Shown: positions 971 through 26,411 of the stretch, in pieces
Numbering within the stretch: position 1 is the first letter of the stretch
Layout of the letters: every line of letters starts with the position of its first letter
Virus record (IMG/VR): IMGVR_UViG_3300014325_000010
Coordinates: 1-33,129 of that record
DNA from: a virus
Direction: 5' to 3' (one strand)
DNA: 33,129 nt
Notes under the pieces: generated by a model
The model's database searches: none
Told to the model about the DNA's origin: nothing
The model's input: the letters and a program-made list of their open reading frames with translations, nothing else
Program-made: the position numbers and the translations under genes

Positions 971-1107
971 AGAGTGATCATTTTATTGAACGGTGTAAAA
1001 ACTGTGGAACTGTAATTTCACAATGTCGTTGTGTTGATCCCAACAAGAAATTGCTTTGGGGTATTTGCGATAAATGTAAAGGTAAAGATGCAACTACTAC
1101 AAGCTAA
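967..1107 (+). CDS. Small Cys-rich zinc-ribbon protein (46 aa)
   Basis: ATGA overlap with the kinase stop. Translation MKSDHFIERCKNCGTVISQCRCVDPNKKLLWGICDKCKGKDATTTS contains CxxC...CxC...CxxC. Overlaps the 5' extension of the next ORF, so either this ORF or the GTG-1031 extension is real. Confidence 0.25.
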   Translation: MKSDHFIERCKNCGTVISQCRCVDPNKKLLWGICDKCKGKDATTTS

Positions 1108-1954
1108 CGAATTCTTTGCCTTTGAGCGCGAACGATACAATATCTATCTGCGCCGGCAAGCAGGTCAAAAATGGCCCTGGACTGATGATCCTATCCTTCG
1201 AGAGTATCGCTTCACTAACACGTTTCGAGAGTTAGATCGGACTACGACCTGGTTTCGGGAAAATATCCGTGGTCCACTTTCACTCAAAGCTACAAACGAC
1301 GAAGGTCGTTTGAAACTTGTTAATTCAACACTAATCTTTCGATGGTTCAATCGTATATCCTCGATGGAATTGATTAAAGAACAACTTCTTAATACGTGGG
1401 ATTCAAAAGAAGTTCATCGAATACTTAAGGATGTGAAGCCACTGGTATCTGGTGCCTTCATGATCAAAACCTTATCTGGTTTGAATAAGCTTGATGGTCT
1501 AATGGAATCCATTGATCTTGCTTTATTGATGACACCAAATATGGTACCAGGTTGGGGTGCTACGCTCGAAGGAGCATGGAGGGATATTCAAAGCATTCCG
1601 TTCCTCGGAGCGTTTATGGCGCACGAGATCGTGCAAGATTTGTATTACACACCAATCTTATGTGATGCAACCGATGCAATGACTTGGTCGAGCTTTGGCC
1701 CAGGTGGTACTCACGGGATGAGTAGAATCGTCTCGGGTCACGCCAAAATGTTCAATCGAGGTTCGGCCACTGACCAAGCTACTATGCGTGAAGCGATGAT
1801 CCAACTACTCGAAATGAGTAATAAGGAGGAATATTGGCCGCAGGAATGGCCGACGTGGAACGCCCATACAGTCGAATTTGGATGTTGCGAATATGATAAA
1901 TATTGCCGAGGTATGGTTGGTGAACGATTGAAACGCAGGTACAGTCCTACATAG
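1088..1954 (+). CDS. Candidate alpha-glutamyl/putrescinyl-thymine pyrophosphorylase (aGPT-Pplase-like). The track ORF starts at GTG 1031; an ATG at 1088 is the alternative start.
   Basis: Long ORF directly after the P-loop kinase. I recalled the family only from the conserved kinase-then-pyrophosphorylase gene order of thymidine hypermodification clusters; no direct motif check was possible. Confidence 0.4.
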   Translation: MQLLQANEFFAFERERYNIYLRRQAGQKWPWTDDPILREYRFTNTFRELDRTTTWFRENIRGPLSLKATNDEGRLKLVNSTLIFRWFNRISSMELIKEQLLNTWDSKEVHRILKDVKPLVSGAFMIKTLSGLNKLDGLMESIDLALLMTPNMVPGWGATLEGAWRDIQSIPFLGAFMAHEIVQDLYYTPILCDATDAMTWSSFGPGGTHGMSRIVSGHAKMFNRGSATDQATMREAMIQLLEMSNKEEYWPQEWPTWNAHTVEFGCCEYDKYCRGMVGERLKRRYSPT

Positions 1955-3286: not shown

Positions 3287-3826
3287 ATGCTAATGAAACA
3301 TTATTTACAAGAAATAGAAATTTCTAAACTTCAACAGCAACTCACAGCTAAGAAAGGGATAGTTTCTGGAAATTGTGCTCGTTGTGGAATATATCGTTGG
3401 TCTTTAGATAGAGATCATAAAACTTGTAAATGGAAATGTAAACAATTAGGATGGACTGTAGAACAAATAGAAGATTACACCAATATACAATATCTATGCC
3501 AAAATTGCCATCACGATAAGACTCATAAAGAAGATCTTATTGGAAGAAAATTATCTGCTGAACACGTTGAAAAAATTATTCAAGCAAATACTGGAAGAAA
3601 ATACTCAGAAGAGACTAGAGCTAGAATGAGTGCTGCCCAAATTGGGCATACACACTCAGAAGAATCAAAATTACGAATGAGCCAAGCAAGACGAGGACGT
3701 CCTCCTGGTAATTTTGGAACCACAACAAAAGATTTGTTAGAAACAATAGAAAAAGAAAAACGAAAACTAGATAAATACACTAAGAAATTAGAGGAGCAAT
3801 CAAATAATGAAAGTTCTAGTAGTTAA
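3287..3826 (+). CDS. HNH homing endonuclease with NUMOD3 repeats
   Basis: CARCG...CQNCHHDKTHKED matches the HNH/zinc-finger core. Two NUMOD3-like repeats: GRKYSEETRARMSAAQIG and HSEESKLRMSQARRG. Confidence 0.7.
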   Translation: MLMKHYLQEIEISKLQQQLTAKKGIVSGNCARCGIYRWSLDRDHKTCKWKCKQLGWTVEQIEDYTNIQYLCQNCHHDKTHKEDLIGRKLSAEHVEKIIQANTGRKYSEETRARMSAAQIGHTHSEESKLRMSQARRGRPPGNFGTTTKDLLETIEKEKRKLDKYTKKLEEQSNNESSSS

Positions 3827-4877
3827 AAATAATCAAGAAGGTCTGTCAAAAGCTTTATCCCTTCTATATAAAGAAGGCGAACAACGAAATTCTAGAAATG
3901 GTCCAGTATTAACCACACCATATCCAGTAACAACTGTTTTTGAAAAACCGCTAGAGCGTATCATTTTTAATCCAGAGAGAGATTACAATTGCGCATTTAT
4001 TTTATATGAAGCAATGTGGATGCTTGCAGGACGTAATGATGTTGCACCAATTGCACGATATGCTAAAAATATGATGAATTATTCTGTTGATAAAACTAAT
4101 CTTCATGCAGCATATGGCCATCGTTGGCGTAAACAGTTTGGAATAGATCAATTAGAAATAATTGCTCAACGACTTCAAAATAATAAAGAAGACCGTAGAT
4201 CAGTATTACAAATGTGGGATTCCAGACTTGATCTTCATCGTGATGATAAAGCTTTGGATCTTCCATGTAATGACACGTGCACTTTCCAAATTGGAGCTGA
4301 TGGAAAATTATATTTAGTGGTTTTTTGTAGATCTAATGATGTTGTTTGGGGTACATTTTTTGCAAATCAGGGACATTTTAGTACACTTCTCGAGTACATG
4401 AGTTTATATATTGGTGTTCCAATCGGAACTTATACACAAATAAGTGTTAATTTTCATGGATATCTAAATGTATTAGATACTGTTAAAGAATTACAATACG
4501 CTGATTTTAAAAATCCATACGAACATGGTATTAGTACACTTCCAATGACAGAATCTCGTCATGGCGAATCCCCAAACGACACGATCAAACGCCTTGATAA
4601 ATCTATAAAAGAATTATTGTTACATGCTGATACAAATTTCAAACTCCCTCGATTAGAAAATGATAACGAAACATGGGTAGACGTAGCATACGCAGTTTTA
4701 AAAGCACACGAATTATGGCGGACACTTGCGGCTCCAGAGCGATTCGAGGAACCTCTTAAGGTATTAGCAGCTCAACCTAAAAATGTAGATTGGATTGTAG
4801 CTATGCGAGAGTGGATAGAACGTCGTCAAGCTATTTGGGAACAGAAGCAAATTGCTGGAGGGAAAATTCAAGAATGA
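3807..4877 (+). CDS. Thymidylate-synthase-family pyrimidine hydroxymethylase (probable dUMP hydroxymethylase)
   Basis: Translation aligns with the ThyA core: HRWRKQFG, DQLEIIAQRLQNNKEDRRSVLQMWD, LPCNDTCTFQIGADGKLYLVVFCRSNDVVWG. The catalytic Cys lies in a PCx context, as in ThyA's PCH. Kinase and pyrophosphorylase neighbours favour a hydroxymethylase over a true thymidylate synthase. Confidence 0.8.
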   Translation: MKVLVVKNNQEGLSKALSLLYKEGEQRNSRNGPVLTTPYPVTTVFEKPLERIIFNPERDYNCAFILYEAMWMLAGRNDVAPIARYAKNMMNYSVDKTNLHAAYGHRWRKQFGIDQLEIIAQRLQNNKEDRRSVLQMWDSRLDLHRDDKALDLPCNDTCTFQIGADGKLYLVVFCRSNDVVWGTFFANQGHFSTLLEYMSLYIGVPIGTYTQISVNFHGYLNVLDTVKELQYADFKNPYEHGISTLPMTESRHGESPNDTIKRLDKSIKELLLHADTNFKLPRLENDNETWVDVAYAVLKAHELWRTLAAPERFEEPLKVLAAQPKNVDWIVAMREWIERRQAIWEQKQIAGGKIQE

Positions 4878-8618: not shown

Positions 8619-9170
8619 ATGTTGAAAAATGATCGTTGGATTTACGAAATGTCAGTGAAACATCAAATGATCTCACCATTTGTTGATCGACAACAAAGCG
8701 ATGGAAAGATCTCCTATGGATTATCATCGTATGGTTATGATCTACGGGTTGGGTCTCATTTCAAAATACTCACTAACACTTACAATTCGATTATAGATCC
8801 TAAAAAGATTGACCCACAATCACTTATAGATATCTATGCAGATGAATTTTGTATAATTCCACCAAACTCATTTGCATTAGCTAGCTCTATCGAGTACTTC
8901 AAGATCCCTCGAAATATCCTAACTATCTGTCTTGGTAAATCGACATATGCTCGATGTGGTATCATCGTGAATGTTACTCCCTTCGAGCCGGAATGGGAAG
9001 GTAACGTTACATTAGAAATTTCCAATACAACGCCGTTGCCGGCTAAAATCTACGCGAACGAAGGTCTTGCACAAGTGCTATTCTTGGAAAGCGATGAACC
9101 TTGTTTAATATCCTACAAGGATCGCAAAGGTAAATATCAAGGACAAACTCAGATTACTCTTCCTAGGTGA
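8619..9170 (+). CDS. dcd: dCTP deaminase (Dcd / dUTPase-fold)
   Basis: [10 protein letters not shown] signature, ...[20 protein letters not shown]..., ...[11 protein letters not shown].... About 183 aa. Confidence 0.8.
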
Positions 9171-11938: not shown

Positions 11939-12241
11939 ATGAAACGAAAATGGCCTTCGGATATCATGTTAGATTTCGCTCGAATACTGATTCCAGCGGG
12001 TTATGTAATGGACACGATAAAGATTCCATTTAAACATCGTCATGGAATTGGTCATTACACGTTGGACTTCGCTCATCCTGAGGCCAAGGTAGATATTGAA
12101 ATCGACGAGACTTATCACCGCAGAGGCAAACAGCCTCTGCGTGATAAGCGTAGAGATGACTGTGTTCGAGAGGCAGGTTGGAAAGTTATCCGTATACCTG
12201 TGAACAAGATTGACAGAATACTTCTAGATAAAAGAAGATGA
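11939..12241 (+). CDS. DUF559/Vsr-like (PD-(D/E)xK-type) endonuclease-domain protein. Paralog of the C-terminus of 14499..14909.
   Basis: IMLDFARILIPAGYVMD...LDFAHPEAKVDIEIDETYH aligns with ...IMLDFAKVLCPAGYLMD...LDFAHPEAKVNIEIDGEIH. Confidence 0.5.
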   Translation: MKRKWPSDIMLDFARILIPAGYVMDTIKIPFKHRHGIGHYTLDFAHPEAKVDIEIDETYHRRGKQPLRDKRRDDCVREAGWKVIRIPVNKIDRILLDKRR

Positions 12242-14498: not shown

Positions 14499-14909
14499 TT
14501 GAGTTGGCCTGTCGGAAAAAGACACACACCAGAAGCTAGAGCAAAAATTTCAAATGCGGCACGGCAACAGTGGCAAGATCCAGTAATAAGAAAGAAACAT
14601 GTAGATGGACTGTCATACGCAATGATGAACGAGACACGTCCAGGTGCTATTGGTCAGCCACAAACACAAATAATGTTAGATTTTGCTAAAGTTCTTTGTC
14701 CTGCTGGTTATCTAATGGATGAAATTAGAATACCATTACAAAATAAAGTGGGAGGTTGTTACAGATTAGACTTTGCTCATCCAGAAGCAAAAGTCAATAT
14801 AGAGATTGATGGTGAAATACACACGCGTCCTTATCGGCGCAGAAATGATGAACTTCGTGATGAGCATTTACGAAGTCTCGGGTGGAAAGTTATTCGGATA
14901 AGAATGTAG
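14499..14909 (+). CDS. NUMOD3-like plus DUF559/Vsr-like endonuclease-domain protein. TTG start directly after an in-frame TAG.
   Basis: GKRHTPEARAKISNAARQQW is NUMOD3-like. LDFAHPEAKVNIEIDGEIH is the nuclease core. Confidence 0.5.
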   Translation: MSWPVGKRHTPEARAKISNAARQQWQDPVIRKKHVDGLSYAMMNETRPGAIGQPQTQIMLDFAKVLCPAGYLMDEIRIPLQNKVGGCYRLDFAHPEAKVNIEIDGEIHTRPYRRRNDELRDEHLRSLGWKVIRIRM

Positions 14910-15992: not shown

Positions 15993-16071
15993 GGCTGCAC
16001 CCTTTTTCATACGGGTCCTGTTGCGGATCATTCGAACGTGCGGGTGCAGCTTCTGCTTGCAGCACGTTCGA
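15993..16071 (+). ncRNA. GC-rich structured leader element with two interleaved perfect stems (pseudoknot-capable)
   Basis: Stem A: GCTGCACCC (15994-16002) pairs with GGGTGCAGC (16042-16050). Stem B: TCGAACGTGC (16032-41) pairs with GCACGTTCGA (16062-71). The order A5'-B5'-A3'-B3' gives H-type pseudoknot topology. Confidence 0.35.
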
Positions 16072-16176
16072 GCCACCTGAGTCGGGGCACCAGTCAGCAG
16101 CAACATGTGATGGACTTCATTAAGTTGGAAAGAGTGACTGGTCGGTAGCACGTGGTGGGGCGATGTTACCTAGGAG

Positions 16177-16206
16177 CCGATGGAAGCGTTCATTTGCTTC
16201 CATCGG
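16177..16206 (+). promoter_or_regulatory. Perfect 11-bp hairpin sequestering the ATG (16180) of the small ORF. The SD AGGAG lies just upstream.
   Basis: CCGATGGAAGC gttcattt GCTTCCATCGG. AGGAG at 16172-76. Confidence 0.4.
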
Positions 16207-16407
16207 AAACTTACTATGTTAATGAGAATTCGGTTTCAAAAACTTGGTGGGCATTACCATTGCCGAGTCTTCACTCGAAAATTGCCGCATACTACTTGGG
16301 AAAAATGTGGTGATCTAACATTTCGTGAAAACGAGTGGAGAGACGTTCTATCACTAATGTCTCACTTAGATATAGAGTTTCTTGAAGAAGACACAGAAAA
16401 CAGCTAG
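16180..16407 (+). CDS. Small Cys/His-containing protein (75 aa). Its start codon is embedded in the hairpin.
   Basis: Good SD spacing. ...GGHYHCRVF...WEKCGD. Confidence 0.3.
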   Translation: MEAFICFHRKLTMLMRIRFQKLGGHYHCRVFTRKLPHTTWEKCGDLTFRENEWRDVLSLMSHLDIEFLEEDTENS

Positions 16408-16434
16408 ACACCATGAATCTTAATCTTACGAAGG

Positions 16435-17943
16435 TTGTCAATGGCTCAAATTTCAGGGGTCTGTGATTTTTGTAACGACCCAAATCCAATTAAACACATA
16501 CGAGTTCCAGTTTTTGATGGTGCAGATTTTGCAGCACTCTTTAGCAATACCAGCCCCACGGCTTGGGCAGCATGTAAAACTTGTCACGCCATGTTTATGG
16601 CTACTGACAAGGATGGCTTGCTACAACGTGCAATTGAAGCAGCACGAGGCACTGCTAACTTTGCTGTACAGCCAATTATTGATCTTCACTACGAATTCTG
16701 GAGAACGATTAATTCGGTAGCAGAAGCTGGTGGTATTGCTAGTGCGCTAATCGATTTTATCGACGGCAAAATCAATAAGAAAGGTTACACTGCACGAGCT
16801 GCTTCTCGCGAAGAACGCATTCTCTCTGTAAGACAGCTTACTGGATTGGATGATAAAGAATTCCTTCGTATGATGAAGGGAGATCTTTATTACGGAAAGA
16901 TTGTCCAAAAACTGGTTGATTGGCACAAAAAGTTTGGTACAAACTACGACGCTCTACAATTTAATCTTCCTCAAAATCCACTGCTGAAAAGCCACGTCCC
17001 ACACTGGCAGACTGCCCTCGAAAAGAAATTTGAACTACTAAAGTTTCTAACAAAGATTACATCTTCAGATGCTAAAAATCGCCCACATGGTGATTACGCA
17101 GATGTCTTCATATCATATCAATATGATGTGCAAGTATTGAAATTGGCCGAAGTGTACAGTTTTAATCTCGAAACCATTACAGCCATTACCGAATCAGGAA
17201 AAAGATTACCTCATGACAGTCCGCTGACCTCCGTAGATATTCCAGGAAATGGCCAAGGTTGGTTTTGGTTCGAGAAGCCTCTTCCTATTCAAACGAACAA
17301 ATATTCTGATACAGTATCAGGACTATTGTGGGGTTTGATTGGAACCGCTGAAGCAAAAAATCTTGCTGTACGATTTACAGCATTTGCTTGTGTACAAAGT
17401 GATAATCAAATATGGCCGTCAACTGAATGGCATTGGCCAGTACATTATTCATTTCATGACATGATTACTTATTCGAGGATTAGGCATGATGAAATGTACG
17501 GTCCCGGTGGCAAATATGAAAAAGTTGATAAGTTTGACACAGAAGGAACATTGCGAGCGATTGCCGAATTAAGCCAGTTCTTTCTTATGTCTTGTGTTTG
17601 GTTCAAACAAGAAATTATCCTCAAAGAACCTACTAATGTTGAACGAGCTGCTCGTCGGCGAATTCAACATGAAAATAAACTCAGTGAACCACCAACAGTT
17701 CGAGTGATTGCTTTGCGTAAGAGTCATCGAGATGTTGAGATGAAAGATAGCTCCAAGGAACAGACAGAGTCTGAAAAGACTCGGGTCTATAGTTGCCGTT
17801 GGAGAGTAATCGGCCACCCTCGACTCCAACCGTGTGGCCCACAAAATAAAGAGAGAAAATTGATTTGGATTTCGGAATACGAAGCTGGACCACCCGATAA
17901 ACCTCTGCGTGAAAAACAACGTGTCTACGCAGTTGTGAGGTAA
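16435..17943 (+). CDS. Large hypothetical protein (502 aa) with an N-terminal Cys4 zinc finger
   Basis: CDFCNDP...CKTCH. No other recognised motifs. Confidence 0.6.
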   Translation: MSMAQISGVCDFCNDPNPIKHIRVPVFDGADFAALFSNTSPTAWAACKTCHAMFMATDKDGLLQRAIEAARGTANFAVQPIIDLHYEFWRTINSVAEAGGIASALIDFIDGKINKKGYTARAASREERILSVRQLTGLDDKEFLRMMKGDLYYGKIVQKLVDWHKKFGTNYDALQFNLPQNPLLKSHVPHWQTALEKKFELLKFLTKITSSDAKNRPHGDYADVFISYQYDVQVLKLAEVYSFNLETITAITESGKRLPHDSPLTSVDIPGNGQGWFWFEKPLPIQTNKYSDTVSGLLWGLIGTAEAKNLAVRFTAFACVQSDNQIWPSTEWHWPVHYSFHDMITYSRIRHDEMYGPGGKYEKVDKFDTEGTLRAIAELSQFFLMSCVWFKQEIILKEPTNVERAARRRIQHENKLSEPPTVRVIALRKSHRDVEMKDSSKEQTESEKTRVYSCRWRVIGHPRLQPCGPQNKERKLIWISEYEAGPPDKPLREKQRVYAVVR

Positions 17944-17946
17944 TCT

Positions 17947-18144
17947 ATGGAGCTAACACCAGAGCAATGGCTAATTTGTTGGGCGGTGCTCGAAATAAAA
18001 GCAATCGATGCTGAGTCTGGCGATGATGATCAAGGCCTCATCGAATTTGAACTCTTAACCAAAATGCCAACTGCAGAGCAACTTCGAGCGATTGCTAACG
18101 AAGCGAAGAAACACTTGACACCGGAACAAGGTAGCATCCTGTAA
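17947..18144 (+). CDS. Small acidic hypothetical protein
   Basis: ORF. Confidence 0.4.
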   Translation: MELTPEQWLICWAVLEIKAIDAESGDDDQGLIEFELLTKMPTAEQLRAIANEAKKHLTPEQGSIL

Positions 18145-18162
18145 CAAGAATTAAACCAAATC

Positions 18163-18312
18163 ATGAAGATAACTAATTCACCAACATTTTCATGGGGAGA
18201 ACTCATATTAATAGGTATTGGTGCATTTGCTATTGGTATCTTCATCCCAATAATTTTTGTAACCGTCTGGAATTTTATTGAACTTATCGTCTATGTGAGC
18301 CAATTACCATGA
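18163..18312 (+). CDS. Small membrane protein (49 aa)
   Basis: MKITNSPTFSWGELILIGIGAFAIGIFIPIIFVTVW... ATGA overlap with the next ORF. Confidence 0.35.
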   Translation: MKITNSPTFSWGELILIGIGAFAIGIFIPIIFVTVWNFIELIVYVSQLP

Positions 18313-18518
18313 AACTTAGAGATCAAATGGATGCACTACGAATTCATCATATTGTGGTACATCGACTAGAACTCGAAAATGGAACACTGGGTATCGATAT
18401 TAGTTATTTTTTCGATGACAATCCTAAACTTTCTTATTCAGTCCGCGAATTTAATAGGAACAGTAAAATACGAAGGGCTCTCGAATTAATCGAAACGCAC
18501 CTTCGAAAGGACGTATAA
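18309..18518 (+). CDS. Hypothetical small protein
   Basis: ORF, ATGA overlaps on both sides. Confidence 0.4.
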   Translation: MKLRDQMDALRIHHIVVHRLELENGTLGIDISYFFDDNPKLSYSVREFNRNSKIRRALELIETHLRKDV

Positions 18519-19471
18519 TGGCTAAGACGACTGTTGGCGCGGTAGTAGGTCGGTTCCAAGTGCCCGAACTTACACAAGGACATCGCGATCTACTCAACGC
18601 GGTCATGGAACGATCAGATCGTTTAGTCATCCTTTTGGGTGTGTCGCCACTCGACGGAAAAGTAAAAGAAAATCCACTGACATTTGATCAACGAACTTCG
18701 TTGTTCCGTGATTACGGACACGCAACAATTCTTCCCGTGTTTGACCAGCCAAATGACAAACTGTGGTCTACCGCTCTTGATAGACTACTCAACGATTTGT
18801 TTCTTGGTTCGGAAATCACATTATTTGGTGGGCGTGATTCCTTTACAACTTCGTACATGGGCCAATTTGGTACGGAGATACTATCATTTCATGCGAGTGC
18901 AACGGTGCAAGGCACAAAGATGAGAAACGCGATTAAGGAATCTCGCGAACCGGAATTTCTTCGAGGGCAAATCTACAGTCTGGTAAACCAATACCCAAAA
19001 ACTTTTCCAACCGTTGATATTGTCGTAATCAAAGACACAGAGTTACTACTTATTCAACGAGCCGATACAAGCGAATGGACCCTACCAGGTGGCTTTGTAG
19101 ATCCAACCGATAGATCGCTTGAACTTGCTGCCAAACGCGAATTATATGAAGAACTTGGTATCTTGAGCGACGAAAATATGGTGTATGTTGGTTCGACGGT
19201 AATCAATGATTGGCGTTATCGATCATGTCGTGATAAAATCATGACGTCGTTGTTCGTTATTGAACCAACAATTGAATCTATTACTCCAAATCCGCTCGAA
19301 GTACAAGATTACAAATGGGTGAAATTGCTTGTGGCATTAGAGGTAATTGCGCCACACCATATACCCTTGATTCGTATGCTTATCACTAGGCACCTGAAAC
19401 TATTTGTCAGGGAAAACGAACTTGACCAAACTGGGAAGATTACTTCGGACACACGTATTCTTCGAGGGTAA
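18518..19471 (+). CDS. nadM: Bifunctional NMN adenylyltransferase (NadM-type) / Nudix hydrolase
   Basis: N-terminal GRFQVPELTQGH carries the (H/T)xGH nucleotidyltransferase motif. C-terminal Nudix box LPGGFVDPTDRSLELAAKRELYEELGI. Confidence 0.75.
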   Translation: MAKTTVGAVVGRFQVPELTQGHRDLLNAVMERSDRLVILLGVSPLDGKVKENPLTFDQRTSLFRDYGHATILPVFDQPNDKLWSTALDRLLNDLFLGSEITLFGGRDSFTTSYMGQFGTEILSFHASATVQGTKMRNAIKESREPEFLRGQIYSLVNQYPKTFPTVDIVVIKDTELLLIQRADTSEWTLPGGFVDPTDRSLELAAKRELYEELGILSDENMVYVGSTVINDWRYRSCRDKIMTSLFVIEPTIESITPNPLEVQDYKWVKLLVALEVIAPHHIPLIRMLITRHLKLFVRENELDQTGKITSDTRILRG

Positions 19472-20901
19472 TGATGCGAAATATTGCGAAACGAACTGAC
19501 GGATACAAACCAAGTCACTGGCTTTTCATGGAGCCAGGTATTCAAGACACATGGGATTACCTTGAAAGTCGTGGCGGCGTTTACGGTGACATGACCGTTT
19601 TCGGCTTGCAAGGTCACGCCTACAAATATCTGTGTGGTCGAGTGATTACACCCGAACAGGTGGAGCAAGCCAATCGATTCTATGCTCGTTACTATGGGAT
19701 GACGGGTGTGTTCAATTACCACGGGTGGATGCGAATAGCTACGACTCTCGAAGGTCGACTTCCTCTCGAATTGTACGCATTACCAGAAGGTCTGCAAGTA
19801 CCAGTACGAACGCCATTGTATCAATACCACGTCACTGACCCCGATTCATGGTGGTTACCAGGCTATTCCGAACCGTTGATGTTCAAACCGTGGTATCCAT
19901 CTACGACTTCAACCATCAGTCAGCACTGTAAGCGGGTGTTGTGGGACGGTCTCAAAGAAAGTGGTACTGAGGCTGACATCGCCTGGAAATTGCATGACTT
20001 CGGTTATCGAGGAGTGTCTTCAGAAGAATCTGCCGAAATTGGTGGAGCGGCGCATCTTGTTCACTTCAAAGGAACCGACACCATACCCGCTATCGACTAC
20101 ATTAACGAATTCTATGGTGATGGGCAAGTGGACGCCTATGGCGACCCAACCTATATGCCAGGATTTAGCGTTCGAGCAACCGAACACAGCGTGATGACTC
20201 ACCGTGGTCGGAAATTGGAGCTCGAAGTCGTTCGACGAATTTTGCAAGTTTGTCCTACCGGAATCATCGCTATGGTAGGCGATTCGTACGACATCTTTAA
20301 TTTTGCCGATCAAATTTTGGGCGTTGATCTGCACGCCGAAGTAGTTGGACGTGATGGACTCGTGGTTGTCAGACCAGATTCTGGTGACCCAGTTCCAACC
20401 ATGATGAAACTACTTTGGATTCTAGGCGAACGGTTTGGTTGGACAATGAATTCCAAGAAATTCAAAGTTCTCAACCATGTCCGTACGCTCCAAGGCGACA
20501 AGAACAATTACGACGCCATTTACAAGATGGTTCGAGCAGTTATCGGTGCTGGCTGGAGTCTCGATAACATTGCTACTTTCGGTATGGGTGGTGGATTACT
20601 CCAGGATTCTGATCGGGACACACAGAAAATGAAAATCGCATTGTCGTCACTCACGGACAAAGATGGTAATTGGCGCGACGTGAACAAAGACCCAATCACC
20701 GATCCTGGTAAGTTCAGCCGTCCTGGGCGATTCGCGGTGGTCTTCGAAGATGGCAGAATCGTTACAAAAGCACTGAAGCAGGGTGAGCCTCGACCGGCTG
20801 GTGATATGTTCGAACTGGTATATCGTAACGGCGAATGGCTCAAGCATACGACATTTGAAACAATTCGTGAACGGGCTGACCGTTGGATGAAGTTAGCATA
20901 A
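19471..20901 (+). CDS. nadV: Nicotinamide phosphoribosyltransferase (Nampt/NadV)
   Basis: 476 aa. ...DFGYRGVSS...GGAAHLVHFKGTDT...RATEHSVMT...GDSYDI... is typical of the Nampt family. ATGA overlap with nadM. Confidence 0.85.
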   Translation: MMRNIAKRTDGYKPSHWLFMEPGIQDTWDYLESRGGVYGDMTVFGLQGHAYKYLCGRVITPEQVEQANRFYARYYGMTGVFNYHGWMRIATTLEGRLPLELYALPEGLQVPVRTPLYQYHVTDPDSWWLPGYSEPLMFKPWYPSTTSTISQHCKRVLWDGLKESGTEADIAWKLHDFGYRGVSSEESAEIGGAAHLVHFKGTDTIPAIDYINEFYGDGQVDAYGDPTYMPGFSVRATEHSVMTHRGRKLELEVVRRILQVCPTGIIAMVGDSYDIFNFADQILGVDLHAEVVGRDGLVVVRPDSGDPVPTMMKLLWILGERFGWTMNSKKFKVLNHVRTLQGDKNNYDAIYKMVRAVIGAGWSLDNIATFGMGGGLLQDSDRDTQKMKIALSSLTDKDGNWRDVNKDPITDPGKFSRPGRFAVVFEDGRIVTKALKQGEPRPAGDMFELVYRNGEWLKHTTFETIRERADRWMKLA

Positions 20902-21071
20902 TGGCACTCATAGTTGTCTTCCATAACGACAGTACTGGAACAGATGACGTTGGAAATTACAACGTCTCTGTCTATGTTAATCAACGACTGATTGATACAG
21001 CGCGAGTCGAAGGGCACAAGCGAAAGGACGATTGGCGGAAATTGATCGTCAAACTTGCCGAGAAAGAATAA
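20883..21071 (+). CDS. Hypothetical small protein. In the same frame as the next HNH ORF, separated by TAA.
   Basis: ORF. Confidence 0.3.
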   Translation: MDEVSIMALIVVFHNDSTGTDDVGNYNVSVYVNQRLIDTARVEGHKRKDDWRKLIVKLAEKE

Positions 21072-21470
21072 ATGGTTCCGTACGAGGGCGGAAAGGTGTA
21101 TGGGCCTTACATAAGGCTGGAAGATGATAGAAGTCATGTTGTCATTGTCTTTCCAGATAAGACACGACGAACTGTGTCTTACCCAAAATACCTTATGGAA
21201 ATCAAATTAGGTCAATATCTAGAACGAAATGAAGAAGTACACCATAAAGATGAAGATGTAACAAATGAAGATCCAGATAATTTGGTAGTAATAAATGGAA
21301 CAACTCACAGAAAGTTACACAACCCTGTAGATCCGCCAACCATCTTAATTTGTGCTTGGTGTGGAATAGAATTTGAAGTTGATAAGAATCATTACCGTAA
21401 TCGACAAAGAAATCATATAAGTTCAGGACCATTTTGTTCAAAACAATGTAGTGGATTCGTTAATAATTAA
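21072..21470 (+). CDS. HNH endonuclease
   Basis: ...EEVHHKDEDVTNEDPDNLVVINGTTHRKLHN... plus a C-terminal Cys4 (CAWCG...CSKQC). Confidence 0.65.
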   Translation: MVPYEGGKVYGPYIRLEDDRSHVVIVFPDKTRRTVSYPKYLMEIKLGQYLERNEEVHHKDEDVTNEDPDNLVVINGTTHRKLHNPVDPPTILICAWCGIEFEVDKNHYRNRQRNHISSGPFCSKQCSGFVNN

Positions 21471-21473
21471 ATT

Positions 21474-21560
21474 GCCGGGGTGGCGTAATTGGCAGCCGCA
21501 CTGGGCTTAAGACTCAGTGACCTACGGGTCGTGCGGGTTCGACTCCCGCTCCCGGCACCA
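21474..21560 (+). tRNA. tRNA-Leu (anticodon UAA), type II with a long variable arm. CCA is encoded.
   Basis: Folded by eye. Acceptor GCCGGGG/TCCCGGC. Anticodon stem CTGGG/CTCAG with loop CTTAAGA. Variable-arm stem GACC/GGTC. T-arm GCGGG-TTCGACT-CCCGC. 87 nt. Confidence 0.8.
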
Positions 21561-21642
21561 TTTATAAAGGAGGTGACTCATGAAGTAGTGTCCACTTCGT
21601 ATGTCCTCTGAATCACTGTGAGTTTATTTCTGGAGAATTGAA

Positions 21643-22107
21643 ATGACAAGTGCAGCCGCCAATATGACACGTATCAACAGCAAGCAGTTCAACGTCGCCT
21701 TCGTGTTCTGCCCGTCGCCGATTACCATCGACAAGCGGAAGGATTGGGCCGGCGCGGATGGCCAACAAGACGAGAGCAACCTGCAGAAAGCGCCAAACGG
21801 CGCGTTCCTCAAGATGAGCTCGCCGACAGAGGTCTCGCACCTTGTGCAGCCCAACGCGGACCGAACCGCGCCCGAAGGTTGGGTACCCGGTGACGGCCCT
21901 GGGTTATTCACAAAGAGCCCGATTTGGGTGACTGGCGTCGAAATCCCAGCAGGAACACCGACTGAGGTCTACACGCTGGATGGAGGGATAACGTACACCT
22001 TCGACGAACCGGCCATGTTGTGCTACAACGGCGATGAGAACGGCCCCAACTACAACGACGGTTGGGTCCAAACGATGAAAAATCTCCGAAAGAACTACCA
22101 CATCTAG
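21643..22107 (+). CDS. Hypothetical protein (154 aa) in a GC-rich island, likely horizontally acquired
   Basis: GGAG RBS. GC3-rich codon usage (AGC, TTC, AAC, GTC, GCC, CCG) unlike the rest of the window. No recognised domain. Confidence 0.55.
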   Translation: MTSAAANMTRINSKQFNVAFVFCPSPITIDKRKDWAGADGQQDESNLQKAPNGAFLKMSSPTEVSHLVQPNADRTAPEGWVPGDGPGLFTKSPIWVTGVEIPAGTPTEVYTLDGGITYTFDEPAMLCYNGDENGPNYNDGWVQTMKNLRKNYHI

Positions 22108-22123
22108 GACGATAGGAGCGATT

Positions 22124-22204
22124 ATGAAGTACCTCGTAGCATGCAGTTTCATTGCGGCGATGATCGTTGCGGGCTTCGTACTCGCATACCTCGAAGTCAG
22201 GTAG
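22124..22204 (+). CDS. Possible 26-aa hydrophobic mini-peptide (MKYLVACSFIAAMIVAGFVLAYLEVR)
   Basis: GGAG upstream, GC-rich, single TM-like segment. Could be spurious. Confidence 0.2.
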   Translation: MKYLVACSFIAAMIVAGFVLAYLEVR

Positions 22205-22210
22205 CGTCTA

Positions 22211-22242
22211 GGACCCTGGTCGCGGGCGGCGCGACCGGGTCC
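22211..22242 (+). promoter_or_regulatory. GC-rich 13-bp hairpin with one bulge
   Basis: GGACCCTGGTCGCG ggcg GCGCGACCGGGTCC. More GC-rich palindromic segments follow at 22329-22379 (CCTTTAGCC...GGCTAAAGG). Confidence 0.4.
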
Positions 22243-22395
22243 AACCGTTAGACCGGCGATTCCGGCCGATAGGTTTATTTACGGGCCACCAGTCGAGGCT
22301 GGGGCTGGATAAAAGTTTAAGGTAATACTAGCGCCTTTAGCCTAGATAGACCGCCTTGGCGGGCGCTGGTGGCTAAAGGACTCCAAATCGTGAAA

Positions 22396-22545
22396 ATGTC
22401 GTTTCAGGACAGAGCTTGTATTAAATGTGGGACTATCGTTCGTTCTTATCATGGTTTTGCTTTCTGTAAACGATGCAATCGTTGGGTGTGTGTTTCTAGA
22501 CGAGCTTTACGAAAACAAAAACAGTCATCAACAAAGATAAAATAA
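22396..22545 (+). CDS. Zinc-ribbon protein (49 aa)
   Basis: MSFQDRACIKCGTIVRSYHGFAFCKRCNRWVC... TAATG overlap with the next ORF. Confidence 0.35.
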   Translation: MSFQDRACIKCGTIVRSYHGFAFCKRCNRWVCVSRRALRKQKQSSTKIK

Positions 22546-22997
22546 TGACTCCACTACCCTGGACAAATGCAAAAACTGCCAATGGAATGCTTAATGCGGT
22601 CATGCGAGTAATCAAAGAAGATTACCGACGTATAAGTATGAATTTTGTTTGTGTTCGAATTGGATCAATACCTCGTTATAGAAATCTAATTAACACTCTT
22701 ATATCACCACCATGTGGTGCAGTTGGTTGCGTAGCTGGTTGGGTTCTTATACTGACAAATCGCACAAGTGAGAATGAATATAATTTAGGAGACACATCCA
22801 CAGCAGGCCGAATTTTAGGACTTAGTTATGAACAGGAGCGAGAGTTGTTTTATCCTCAATACTTAGTTGAAGCTCGTAGTGAGTTCCAAACAGCGAGACA
22901 TGCCAATGAAGTGATCCGTCATATCCGAGCTTTTCAAAACAAATACCGAAAGCAACTTCTCGCTACAAAATTGGATAATTATGCCTCGCAACGTTAA
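22545..22997 (+). CDS. Hypothetical protein
   Basis: ORF. Confidence 0.45.
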   Translation: MTPLPWTNAKTANGMLNAVMRVIKEDYRRISMNFVCVRIGSIPRYRNLINTLISPPCGAVGCVAGWVLILTNRTSENEYNLGDTSTAGRILGLSYEQERELFYPQYLVEARSEFQTARHANEVIRHIRAFQNKYRKQLLATKLDNYASQR

Positions 22998-23472
22998 ACA
23001 AAGACCTGGCTGGTCAGAAGAGAGACGCGCAAAAGTCGCCGAAACTTGGCGACTACGTAAAGAACAGCAACATGCTCTCGATGAAGTAAGCAAAATCAAT
23101 ACTAAACGCCAAGGTAGAATCTGTGTATACTGCGGCGAAAAGTATGATATACGCGAGCACGTACCAATTCTTCGAGCACGTATCACACTACCAGTCAGTG
23201 GACCTAAAATCAAATTCGTAATAGTTCCGGCCTGTAAAGAATGTCATCGCCACCTCGAATATGATGAGAGTTTGACTGTCACACAACGACGAGCTATCAT
23301 CAAAAATATTCTTCGCGACAAATACACAGCTTTCCTTGATTGGAAAGAATACACACCAAATAATTACGAACTTCGACAAACACTCAGCAGACATCACCTC
23401 GAATTACTCGATGGAATGAACCGCGCAAAAACAATTATACTACGACGTCTTAAATACAAGGAAGGCGAATGA
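22981..23472 (+). CDS. HNH endonuclease
   Basis: CVYCGEKYDIREHVPI...VPACKECHRHLE. Confidence 0.55.
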   Translation: MPRNVKQRPGWSEERRAKVAETWRLRKEQQHALDEVSKINTKRQGRICVYCGEKYDIREHVPILRARITLPVSGPKIKFVIVPACKECHRHLEYDESLTVTQRRAIIKNILRDKYTAFLDWKEYTPNNYELRQTLSRHHLELLDGMNRAKTIILRRLKYKEGE

Positions 23473-24721: not shown

Positions 24722-24949
24722 ATGGAATGGTATAGTATTTGCTGGTCACTAGTGTTACTTCCTTGGTGTTTCGGAGGATGGCGGCCACGTTGTTCAGCCA
24801 CGTTGTGGCTAACAATCCATGAAGACGTGTTTAGGACACGTAAAATAAACCAATCTGGTGAACGTGTCGTTGTCTGGAATTGTTCGAGATGCCAAAAAGA
24901 AATAGGCGAAACAACTTCCCAACTCTCTTTACACAAGAATCTGCGATGA
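24722..24949 (+). CDS. Small Cys-rich protein. ATGA-coupled to the SLOG gene.
   Basis: ...CWSLVLLPWC...WNCSRCQKE.... Confidence 0.35.
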   Translation: MEWYSICWSLVLLPWCFGGWRPRCSATLWLTIHEDVFRTRKINQSGERVVVWNCSRCQKEIGETTSQLSLHKNLR

Positions 24950-25389
24950 AGTTTGTCTCCGGAGGTCAAACCGGAGCAGACCGTGGTGGACTTGAAGCCG
25001 GCAAGATTCTTGGATTCGAAACTGGAGGTTGGGTTCCTAAAGGTTGGCGAACAGAAAACGGACCCGATCCAACACTAGCAACTTTTGGTTGTAAAGAGCA
25101 TTTGTCATCAGATTATCCACCTCGAACCCGAGTCAATGTTGCCTACGCGGATGGAACAATATGGTTCGGACGAACTGGATCTCCTGGTTATAAATGCACA
25201 TACAATGCAACAGTCGAGTTTGATAGTCTATTTATCGTGAATCCCACTTCACAAGAATTACTCGATTTGGTAAAAGAGCGCAAGATAAGAATTTGTAACA
25301 TTTCTGGCAATCGAGAATCGAAAAATCCTGGAATTCAACGACGAACAAAAGACTTTTTAATTCAAACCTTTTCACAATCAGTAAAATGA
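24946..25389 (+). CDS. SLOG-superfamily protein (YpsA / putative MoCo-carrier-like). Start taken at the internal ATG 24946.
   Basis: MKFVSGGQTGADRGGLEAGKILGFETGGWVPKGWRTENG matches the SGGQTGADR...GG(W/C)xPKGR signature. Confidence 0.55.
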   Translation: MKFVSGGQTGADRGGLEAGKILGFETGGWVPKGWRTENGPDPTLATFGCKEHLSSDYPPRTRVNVAYADGTIWFGRTGSPGYKCTYNATVEFDSLFIVNPTSQELLDLVKERKIRICNISGNRESKNPGIQRRTKDFLIQTFSQSVK

Positions 25390-26411
25390 AACAATTTCTT
25401 TATCCATCCAGTAGTGATGTGAAAGTCAACCACACTGTTACTGTCTATCCAGACAATCGTATCACGTGTAGTTGTCGAGGGTATCGATCACCAAATAAGT
25501 GTTGGCATTTTCGCGACACAGCAAAGAAACTTGGAATTGATATTAACGAAGCGAGTAAAGAAGGACAGATAATACCAGTAGCGACACAAGGTTCACTTCT
25601 CGAAAGTGAACGAGAAATTCCTTTTAAACCAATGTTAGCACGTGGGTTAAAAGACGAAGAAACTATCCACGATTATCCTGGTGATATTTATGTACTAGAA
25701 GAAAAATACAATGGACATCGAATGCTTATCGAGACAGGACCAGTAGTTACTGCTTGGTCTCGAGCCGGTAATATTCGTATGCTTCCATCCCATCTGATCA
25801 AAGAATTAAATAAGATGCCAAAAGCTCTTATTGATTCTGAACTCTACATACCGGGTGGTCAAAGCACGGATGTCACTGCTTTACATTTACAAGATCAACT
25901 GGTGATTGCTATTTTCGATATCATGAACATCGAAGGTGAGTCAATCATTAATGATCCATTGTACAAACGTCGTAAAGCATTGGATGAAGCAGCTTCCCAT
26001 CTACAGGGTCCAGTAAATATATCAGACCAATTTGAACCAAACCAAACCAAGCTAGATGAAATTTGGAATCGTGGTGGTGAAGGAGCAATTCTTAAACGTA
26101 GGGATTCGCCGTACGAAGTTGGATATCGATCTAAAGCTTGGATCAAGTTTAAAAAAGAAGAAACAGAAATTGCTAAAATCGTAAGTTTCGAGATGGGACT
26201 TCTTGGTCCTTACTCGAGAGTTGTTGCAATTGATAAATTTGGTGTCGAAATTAGCGTTAAGATGTTAAACGATGAATGGCGAGCAACACTCGAACGCGAG
26301 GGAGGAGCAAAATATCTTGGCTGGATTTTGAGATTTAAACATCGAGGGAGAACTCGCGACAAGAAGAAGTATATTTCGCCAATGATGGATCACATTTACG
26401 AGGACAATTAA
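25386..26411 (+). CDS. ATP-dependent polynucleotide ligase (nucleotidyltransferase superfamily; DNA or RNA ligase) with an N-terminal zinc finger
   Basis: Motif I EEKYNGHR (KxNGxR), motif III IDSELYIP, motif IV GEGAILKR, motif V KAWIKFKK. N-terminal CSCRGY...CWHF. Confidence 0.6.
   Translation: MKQFLYPSSSDVKVNHTVTVYPDNRITCSCRGYRSPNKCWHFRDTAKKLGIDINEASKEGQIIPVATQGSLLESEREIPFKPMLARGLKDEETIHDYPGDIYVLEEKYNGHRMLIETGPVVTAWSRAGNIRMLPSHLIKELNKMPKALIDSELYIPGGQSTDVTALHLQDQLVIAIFDIMNIEGESIINDPLYKRRKALDEAASHLQGPVNISDQFEPNQTKLDEIWNRGGEGAILKRRDSPYEVGYRSKAWIKFKKEETEIAKIVSFEMGLLGPYSRVVAIDKFGVEISVKMLNDEWRATLEREGGAKYLGWILRFKHRGRTRDKKKYISPMMDHIYEDN

Follow-up and report, generated by a model that had tools for sequence, protein, structure and literature searches.

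What would a phage gain from two adjacent genes of NAD+ metabolism, and which reactions would their products catalyse? The question is raised by a pair consisting of a nadM-like gene and nadV in the window, by which we mean the whole stretch of DNA analysed here (33,129 nucleotides, positions 1 to 33,129 of the IMG/VR record IMGVR_UViG_3300014325_000010); these 33 kb are a part of a ~161-kb (161,202-bp) uncultivated phage contig. The initial annotation, made from the sequence, described the nadV product as Nampt (nicotinamide phosphoribosyltransferase) and the nadM product as a fusion of NMNAT, the adenylyltransferase of nicotinamide mononucleotide (NMN), with a Nudix hydrolase. Both open reading frames (ORFs) lie at the coordinates given there, adjacent on the plus strand (Table 1), and the strong homology of both means that neither is a chance ORF. 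We find that the pair represents the known NARP2 pathway in a divergent form, and not a new kind of system. To judge by sequence, the pair very likely converts nicotinamide to NMN and NMN to NAD+; it likely serves the phage as a NARP2-type cassette of two enzymes for NAD+ salvage; and, by analogy with described pairs, we favour with moderate confidence anti-defence as its main selective role.

Identity of the two enzymes

The nadV product matches Pfam NAMPT_N (amino acids 4–100, E-value 3e-21, 76 bits at the cutoff of 25) and Pfam NAPRTase (amino acids 173–420, 7e-41, 140.9 bits at the cutoff of 20.8). It scores 434.6 bits with NCBIfam NF006629, above the cutoff of 405, and matches PHROG 448, "nicotinamide phosphoribosyl transferase", at 2.2e-122. 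It aligns end to end with the Xanthomonas Nampt (PDB 7yqo, 5e-100) and with human NAMPT (3.4e-88). The NF006629 score, the 7yqo match and the retained catalytic residues bear out the identity proposed initially.

The residues of human NAMPT were mapped through the 2gvg alignment, and their conservation was judged in 63 related sequences. The protein is identical to the human enzyme at D16, Y18, R40, F193, R196, D219, H247 and D279, and also at R311, D313, G353, D354, G383–385, R392, K415 and K423 (human numbering). Thus, in the alignment check of catalytic residues suggested by the initial annotation, the phosphoribosyl-binding Asp/Arg class is retained and every residue listed above is identical. 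The mapped catalytic residues are conserved in all 63 relatives. They include the stacking residues Y18 and F193, D219, responsible for the nicotinamide specificity, and H247, the histidine whose autophosphorylation couples ATP hydrolysis, the equivalent here being His239.

The nadM product, taken alone, is recognised by Pfam NUDIX (amino acids 164–285, 1.2e-18), by the Nudix family PHROG 1198 (1.8e-16) and, at amino acids 2–147, by the cytidyltransferase family PHROG 395 (1.3e-10). Its family comprises 841 matches, and a profile was built from 44 members. The profile matches the bifunctional NMNAT/ADPRase NadM-Nudix of Francisella, 2qjt, at 3.6e-26 (1.5e-11 and 2.9e-11 for the domains), the Synechocystis NadM-Nudix 2qjo at 1.8e-20 in both domains, and also the archaeal NMNATs 1f9a (1.1e-9), 1ej2 and 4yp7.

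The AlphaFold (AF2) model of the nadM product has pLDDT of 87.7 and pTM of 0.59. The top six Foldseek matches in the PDB are to the NadM-Nudix structures 2r5w, 2qjo and 2qjt, all over the full length (340–356 columns, E-values from ~1e-16 to 4e-17), and the next match is the NrtR Nudix domain in complex with ADP-ribose (ADPR), 3gz8. The TM score of the model against the NadM-Nudix structures is about 0.4, which we ascribe to the placement of the two domains relative to each other, as this differs or is uncertain. The architecture of NadM-Nudix proteins, an N-terminal Rossmann nucleotidyltransferase followed by a C-terminal Nudix domain, is found in the nadM product. On the family profile and the predicted fold, we regard it as a divergent NadM-type NMNAT-Nudix fusion; the fusion claimed initially thus stands, with the 44-member profile at 3.6e-26 and a full-length fold match at 4e-17.

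The ATP-binding signature of the NMNAT domain, GRFQVPELTQGH, is the TxGH variant of HxGH, with an insertion of two residues relative to GRFQPFHxGH. The family consensus, GRFQVPELHxGH, is likewise the canonical motif plus two residues. Column 19 of the family contains H in 36, T in four and S in four of the 44 members; T and S are found sporadically in diverged members, the closest relative included. R12, F13, H22 and R136 are invariant. The second NMNAT motif, SxTxxR, reads QGTKMR, with T133 present in 38 of the 44 members and R136 in all. In this superfamily (H/T)xGH is accepted as the signature, and PPAT and human NMNAT1 carry Thr. Hence the HxGH motif, whose loss would have spoken against the initial annotation, is not lost in any meaningful sense: its first His is literally Thr, an accepted variant, and H22 is retained throughout the family.

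The Nudix box, GFVDPTDRSLELAAKRELYEELG, differs from the canonical Gx5Ex7REUxEExGU in one extra residue and in D for the first E, and has REUxEExG intact. G191, G192, F193, D195, R207, E208, E211 and E212, which include the Nudix REx2EE, are invariant in the family. The same deviation is seen in the active X29/Nudt16 enzymes, as demonstrated by the alignment to X29 (1u20). This form of the box explains the sub-threshold match of the nadM product to Pfam Nudt16-like, 23.8 bits at the cutoff of 27, a family that many of its relatives match. Judging by the motifs, the nadM product is probably active. In a pairwise alignment, the stretch of the canonical NadM of phage VspSw_1 (L091:2410-3408) that faces the Nudix box is poorly conserved (LEPN-----LTEAQNVYKE--VLEETGLEI), and phage NadM proteins may not all have the same Nudix activity.

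The same motifs could be read differently. The Nudix half might be the one that matters, destroying ADPR-derived immune signals such as the cyclic-ADPR isomers of Thoeris, or NAD caps, the TxGH half being weak or inactive. The X29/Nudt16-like box, G-x5-D-x8-REUxEE instead of the canonical NadM form, the matches of many family members to Pfam Nudt16-like and the Thr in place of the first His all agree with this, but the nearest solved Nudix domains are those of NadM and of the NrtR–ADPR complex, T or S occurs in eight of the 44 members, all diverged, while H22, R12, F13 and R136 are invariant, and (H/T)xGH is a textbook signature of the superfamily. Moreover, the order-conserved link with Nampt in phages and the NrtR–nadV link in bacteria, both described below, are sensible only if NMN is adenylated. 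We consider this explanation quite unlikely, and retain the reading of the nadM product as a bifunctional fusion with an NMNAT half predicted to be active.

Assignment to NARP2 and conservation of the gene pair

Phage proteins called NadV comprise true Nampts, which act in NARP2, and Namats, which use ADPR-pyrophosphate and are paired with the Prs-like Adps in NARP1 (bioRxiv 10.1101/2024.02.11.579819). The transferase of the window could in principle be a Namat. The two groups are homologous, with catalytic residues in common, and the KVP40 Nampt has a minor ADPR-pyrophosphate activity (bioRxiv 10.1101/2024.02.11.579819). Catalytic residues were dropped as a discriminator, as nearly all of them are also present in the Felix O1 Namat, and the partner gene and a tree were used instead.

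The Namat set comprised loci of five phages (Felix O1, Whirlwind, PHB05, Staphylococcus LSA2302 and JSF1) in which the homologue lies beside a gene annotated as ribose-phosphate pyrophosphokinase, and the set of NadM-linked Nampts comprised Tunturi_5, VspSw_1 and Mucilaginibacter, to which the KVP40-like phage D481 was added. In a neighbour-joining tree, drawn without bootstrap support values, the five Adps-linked Namats form their own clade, and the window protein falls outside it, among the NadM-linked Nampts. Its identity is 37–40% with the proteins of Tunturi_5, VspSw_1, D481 and Mucilaginibacter, and 29–31% with the Namats. All five Namats have Adps immediately upstream, except in Felix O1, where it is one gene away. 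In the 33-kb window, no ORF resembles Prs or Adps (Pribosyltran, Pribosyl_synth and Prs-like matches were looked for), either next to the pair or elsewhere. Finally, the window protein aligns at full length with cellular Nampts, and its operon partner is an NMNAT, which is unneeded in NARP1. Hence a Namat is highly improbable. By sequence, the transferase belongs to the Nampt clade and not to the Namat clade, and the phage has a Nampt together with an Nmnat homologue, which defines NARP2. The replication and nucleotide-metabolism context and the absence of Adps and Prs from the window also match NARP2, and hence the pair is a divergent member of this known pathway.

Several observations weigh against this assignment. 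Pfam CTP_transf_like is undetected in the nadM product, and the best score with the NCBIfam equivalog PRK05379 is 55.4 bits at the cutoff of 449, mostly due to the Nudix half. The protein is only about 25% identical to the canonical phage NadM and thus far from characterised proteins. It lies outside the PRK05379 equivalog models and, by its sequence, represents a separate subfamily. Thr for the first His and the altered Nudix box may mean changed kinetics or a changed substrate range. In the Nampt, the position of human K400 is occupied by Ala, and Lys is found two residues earlier, at the position of S398; in human NAMPT these positions bind the 5'-phosphate. Most relatives have Ala and Lys at the positions of S398 and K400, respectively, and the arrangement seen here (amino acids 388–390, window positions 20632–20640) is common to five of the 63. 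As it recurs in these relatives, the swap looks like a compensated variant. On the same side are the unsupported branching of the tree and the scope of the search for Adps and for NadR/PnuC, 33 kb of the ~161-kb contig.

To assess the conservation of the pair, we scanned IMG/VR with the family alignment. Relatives of NadM are encoded in 237 stretches, of which 80 loci were kept. A Nampt-type gene is found within 6 kb of the NadM-family gene in 75 of these 80 viral loci; in 74 the two genes share the strand and the Nampt-type gene is the downstream one, and the gap does not exceed 100 nucleotides in about half. In four of the 75 (L005, L007, L046 and L079) the transferase is just 25–27% identical to Nampt, and in the neighbour-joining tree these four proteins form a deep outlier clade beyond both the Nampt and Namat clades. 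No Nampt is seen in the flanks of the NadM-family gene, about 1.7–6 kb on each side, in L010, L025, L028 and L029; there the partner may be elsewhere in the genome, or the NadM-family protein may act alone.

Four of the viral nadV genes are split into two ORFs (L055:7093-9451, L058:7065-9460, L070:7095-9495 and L080:8647-11050). In each, an N-terminal piece of 110–142 amino acids is followed by an insert of ~0.9–1.0 kb with its own ORF and then by the remainder. The insert looks like a mobile element or a homing endonuclease.

Among 80 bacterial loci, nadV is directly downstream of the NadM-family gene in 65, and an NrtR-like gene is directly upstream of it in 55. These loci are mostly from the Bacteroidota (Chryseolinea, Arcicella, Chitinophaga), with others from Ignavibacteria, Kapaibacteria and metagenome-assembled genomes of candidate phyla. 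The chromosome of Mucilaginibacter gotjawali (AP017313) has the explicit order nrtR-nadM-nadV. This bacterial arrangement is the classic NAD-salvage regulon. An NrtR-like gene is nearby in only one of the 80 viral loci, as against the 55 bacterial ones, and thus the phage cassette corresponds to the NAD-salvage operon of bacteria minus the repressor that senses ADPR.

Since the same NadM subfamily and nadV are chromosomal in the Bacteroidota and other phyla, the pair might be a bacterial housekeeping operon on a bacterial or prophage contig, and no phage counter-measure at all. This has a very slim chance: phage genes are densely represented in the window (thymidylate synthase, DNA polymerase exonuclease, helicase and ligase by PHROG, a 5-hydroxymethyldeoxyuridine (5-hmdU) DNA kinase, homing endonucleases, a tail-like protein, a tRNA), its locus has no NrtR, and the closest relatives are on viral contigs of 30–170 kb. 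The closest phage NadM-like genes are those of the Tunturiibacter phage Tunturi_5 (36% identity) and of metagenomic megaphages (28–35%). In Tunturi_5 and in the megaphage LR756502 the Nampt gene is immediately downstream, in the same order as in the window. The pair is thus best regarded as a phage locus.

We also looked for a third conserved partner by applying Pfam to 150 flanking and intervening ORFs of the related loci. Each family is found in four of them at most, Prs, NADAR and NAD synthase being seen once each, and hence the module is just two genes. The flanking ORFs of the window (orf65, orf69, orf56, the 502-aa ORF upstream, the HNH gene and orf154) were rejected as parts of the module, as none of them occurs in any of the 80 viral loci. 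The N-terminus of the 502-aa ORF is rich in Cys, and its C-terminal part matches PHROG 15934 (function unassigned, 7.7e-19); there is no Pfam match.

Proposed role of the pair

During infection, Nampt would form NMN from nicotinamide and host phosphoribosyl pyrophosphate (PRPP), and the NMNAT domain of the NadM-like protein would use ATP to turn NMN into NAD+. The most likely reaction of the Nudix domain is the hydrolysis of ADPR to AMP and ribose-5-phosphate, and the latter would be converted to PRPP by host Prs, so that both NADase products, nicotinamide and ADPR, could be recycled. The two genes would be read as one translationally coupled unit in a replication and nucleotide-metabolism block, free of the NrtR repressor. 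The main benefit would likely be that NAD+ is kept available when it is depleted by Thoeris, DSR, SIR2-type or similar host systems. From homology we infer what the enzymes do, that the Nudix domain acts on ADPR, and that the pair is of benefit against defence.

Vibrio phage KVP40 reportedly encodes NadV (Nampt) and NatV (NMNAT-Nudix), a pair said to have been described by Lee et al. in J Bacteriol in 2017. With the Nampt and Nmnat of KVP40, defence by type I Thoeris and by DSR2 is abolished and NAD+ rises; Nmnat accompanies a KVP40-type Nampt in 94% of the phages that have the latter, and ~1.1% of sequenced phages carry NARP2 (bioRxiv 10.1101/2024.02.11.579819, Osterman et al.). NadV and NadM-Nudix have also been described as the phage answer to NADase effectors, every phage with NadM having NadV as well (Iyer et al. 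2022, PMC9503650). Hence the anti-defence idea put forward for the window pair is already known, being the same as the published NARP2 pathway.

The window pair and that of KVP40 share the two enzyme families, the predicted reactions, the NMNAT-Nudix fusion, phage encoding and the lack of an Adps partner. They differ in sequence: the window Nampt is ~37% identical to that of the KVP40-like D481, and the NadM subfamily is distinguished from the canonical phage NadM, at the identity given above, by GRFQVPEL(H/T/S)xGH and the Nudt16-like Nudix box. They also differ in arrangement, as the window genes abut, whereas the Nampt gene of D481 has no annotated NadM within 8 kb. The bacterial nrtR-nadM-nadV operons have the same NadM subfamily (36–41% identity), the same order of nadM and nadV and close spacing, but the phage copy lacks NrtR and is embedded in phage replication genes. 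The Francisella (2qjt, 2r5w) and Synechocystis (2qjo) proteins resemble the window NadM-like protein in the two-domain fold.

NARP1 (Adps and Namat; Felix O1, Bas63, SPbetaL1) has homologous transferases and also rebuilds NAD+ from the NADase products; unlike the window pair, which has an NMNAT and no Adps, it relies on the Prs-like Adps and needs no NMNAT. NARP3 (a PnuC-like transporter and a NadR-like RNK-NMNAT; PMC13464706) ends with the same adenylation of NMN and serves the same purpose against depletion, but starts from imported nicotinamide riboside, and neither PnuC nor the ribosylnicotinamide kinase domain was found in the window. The X29/Nudt16 enzymes share with the window Nudix the unusual box spacing GGFVDxxDxSLExxxxRELxEE; they are stand-alone eukaryotic proteins, whereas the window domain is overall nearer to the Nudix domains of NadM and NrtR.

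The same biochemistry may have been selected as a general metabolic boost, that is, as an auxiliary metabolic gene set providing more NAD(H) for nucleotide synthesis and redox reactions while a large genome is replicated, whether or not the host has NADase defences. NARP2 raises NAD+ also in cells without a defence system (bioRxiv 10.1101/2024.02.11.579819), which counts against defence as the main role, since it makes the anti-defence role inseparable from a general boost. Furthermore, the KVP40 genes and similar phage genes were first read as metabolic, and the pair is situated among genes of nucleotide metabolism and replication and not in an obvious anti-defence island. On the other hand, the phage DNA ligase is ATP-dependent (PF01068) and thus creates no special need for NAD+, the loss of NrtR control fits NAD+ production whatever the state of the cell, and direct experiments demonstrated that NARP2 defeats Thoeris and DSR2 (bioRxiv 10.1101/2024.02.11.579819). 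The two roles are not mutually exclusive. As the main benefit, a metabolic boost is possible, if doubtful, and we continue to favour anti-defence.

The box of the Nudix domain also raises the possibility that its range is widened or shifted to Thoeris cyclic-ADPR isomers, ADPR-pyrophosphate or NAD-capped RNA, resulting in a dual-action counter-defence. This is unlikely. If true, one protein would both silence NAD-derived signalling and feed ribose-5-phosphate into NAD+ synthesis.

With the window pair, one more uncultivated phage (~161 kb) joins the carriers of NARP2, and the understanding of how NARP2 works is unchanged. The divergent NadM-Nudix subfamily appears as the usual partner of Nampt in many large environmental phages, with relatives in the 237 IMG/VR stretches. 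Standard tools label it just "NUDIX" or "cytidyltransferase", and its recognition would improve the anti-defence annotation of metagenomic phages. The bacterial nrtR-nadM-nadV and the phage nadM-nadV make a tidy case in which an operon of the host has passed to a phage and lost its regulator.

Locus layout and phage context

The ATGA coupling claimed by the initial annotation is wrong. The nadM/nadV junction, TAATGATG, contains TAATG with a one-nucleotide overlap, the nadM stop TAA (19469–19471) sharing one base with the nadV ATG (19471–19473). An alternative in-frame ATG of nadV is at 19474, six nucleotides after GAGG (19464–19467); the Shine-Dalgarno spacing is better for this start than for that at 19471, and GAGGG at 19464–19468 could serve as the Shine-Dalgarno site. 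The public gene call of the contig takes ATG 19474, yielding 475 amino acids and a gap of two nucleotides to nadM instead of an overlap. The genes abut either way. An AGGA is present at 18508–18511, six nucleotides ahead of the nadM ATG.

TAATG overlaps form a chain of three: orf69–nadM (18516–18520), nadM–nadV (19469–19473) and nadV–orf56 (20899–20903). The HNH gene begins one base past the orf56 stop. These consecutive junctions suggest that orf69, nadM, nadV and orf56, together with the HNH gene, are one translationally coupled run. Consensus scans for promoters and terminators around the pair were at chance level (14 matches at 11.5 expected and 8 at 6.1 expected), and in the Rfam scan of the whole window the tRNA was the sole match, with no NAD+ riboswitch or any other riboswitch. 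The antisense ORFs 19309–19722, 20020–20334, 20520–21137 and 18451–18630 have no family matches and were rejected as shadow ORFs. The GC content of the pair is 44–48%, near the window average of ~42%, and thus gives no sign of a recent foreign origin.

Table 1. Features of the pair and of its surroundings in the window
Feature	Position	Strand	Details
nadM-like gene	18518..19471	+	317 aa, ATG start
NMNAT domain, HIGH-superfamily nucleotidyltransferase	18527..18958	+	~aa 4-147; profile aa 4-140 on 2qjt NMNAT
ATP-binding signature GRFQVPELTQGH	18548..18583	+	aa 11-22; alignment to 2qjt
Nudix hydrolase domain	18986..19393	+	~aa 157-292; Pfam NUDIX; nearest solved: NadM-Nudix, NrtR-ADPR 3gz8
Nudix box GFVDPTDRSLELAAKRELYEELG	19091..19159	+	aa 192-214; pattern G-x5-D-x8-REUxEExG
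nadM/nadV junction TAATGATG	19469..19476	+	direct sequence reading
nadV (Nampt) gene	19471..20901	+	476 aa, ATG start
His239 codon (human NAMPT His247)	20185..20187	+	2gvg alignment; kept in all 63 relatives
5-hmdU DNA kinase helical domain	1031-1954		PF18723 3.8e-36
Homing-endonuclease-like ORFs	3287-3826, 11939-12241, 14499-14909		NUMOD3, two DUF559/MTES_1575
Thymidylate-synthase-like gene	3807-4877		phrog_5131 8.5e-96
dCTP-deaminase-like/dUTPase gene	8619-9170		
502-aa ORF	16435-17943		tested as flanking ORF
orf65	17947-18144		tested as flanking ORF
orf69	18309-18518		69 aa; tested as flanking ORF
orf56	20901-21071		56 aa; tested as flanking ORF
HNH ORF	21072-21470		directly after nadV and the 56-aa ORF; tested as flanking ORF
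tRNA-Leu(taa)	21474-21560		directly after the HNH ORF
Circularly permuted YpsA SLOG-domain protein	24880-25389		PF12694 1.2e-27
ATP-dependent DNA ligase	25386-26411		PF01068

The window is clearly phage DNA from a replication and nucleotide-metabolism region, in agreement with the phage setting given to the pair by the initial annotation. Its genes encode a 5-hmdU DNA kinase domain, thymidylate-synthase-like and dCTP-deaminase-like proteins, an exonuclease subunit of DNA polymerase, an SNF2 helicase, an ATP-dependent DNA ligase, a Pam3 gp34-like protein, a pyrimidine-dimer glycosylase, a tail-like fn3 protein and proteins with SPFH and TPM domains; several homing-endonuclease-like ORFs and tRNA-Leu(taa) are present as well. 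A megablast search of window positions 16000–23000 against 50,697 phage records yielded no match, and hence the phage has no close sequenced relative. The kinase, thymidylate-synthase-like and deaminase-like genes look, by their sequences, like a thymidine-hypermodification set, and thus the phage DNA may carry modified thymidine.

The end of the SLOG-domain gene overlaps the start of the DNA ligase gene, and the former is about 4 kb from nadV. Viral YpsA-like SLOG domains have been proposed to degrade immune signals of the cyclic-ADPR type (Iyer et al. 2022, PMC9503650). By analogy, this gene could be a second counter-defence gene linked to NAD and ADPR.

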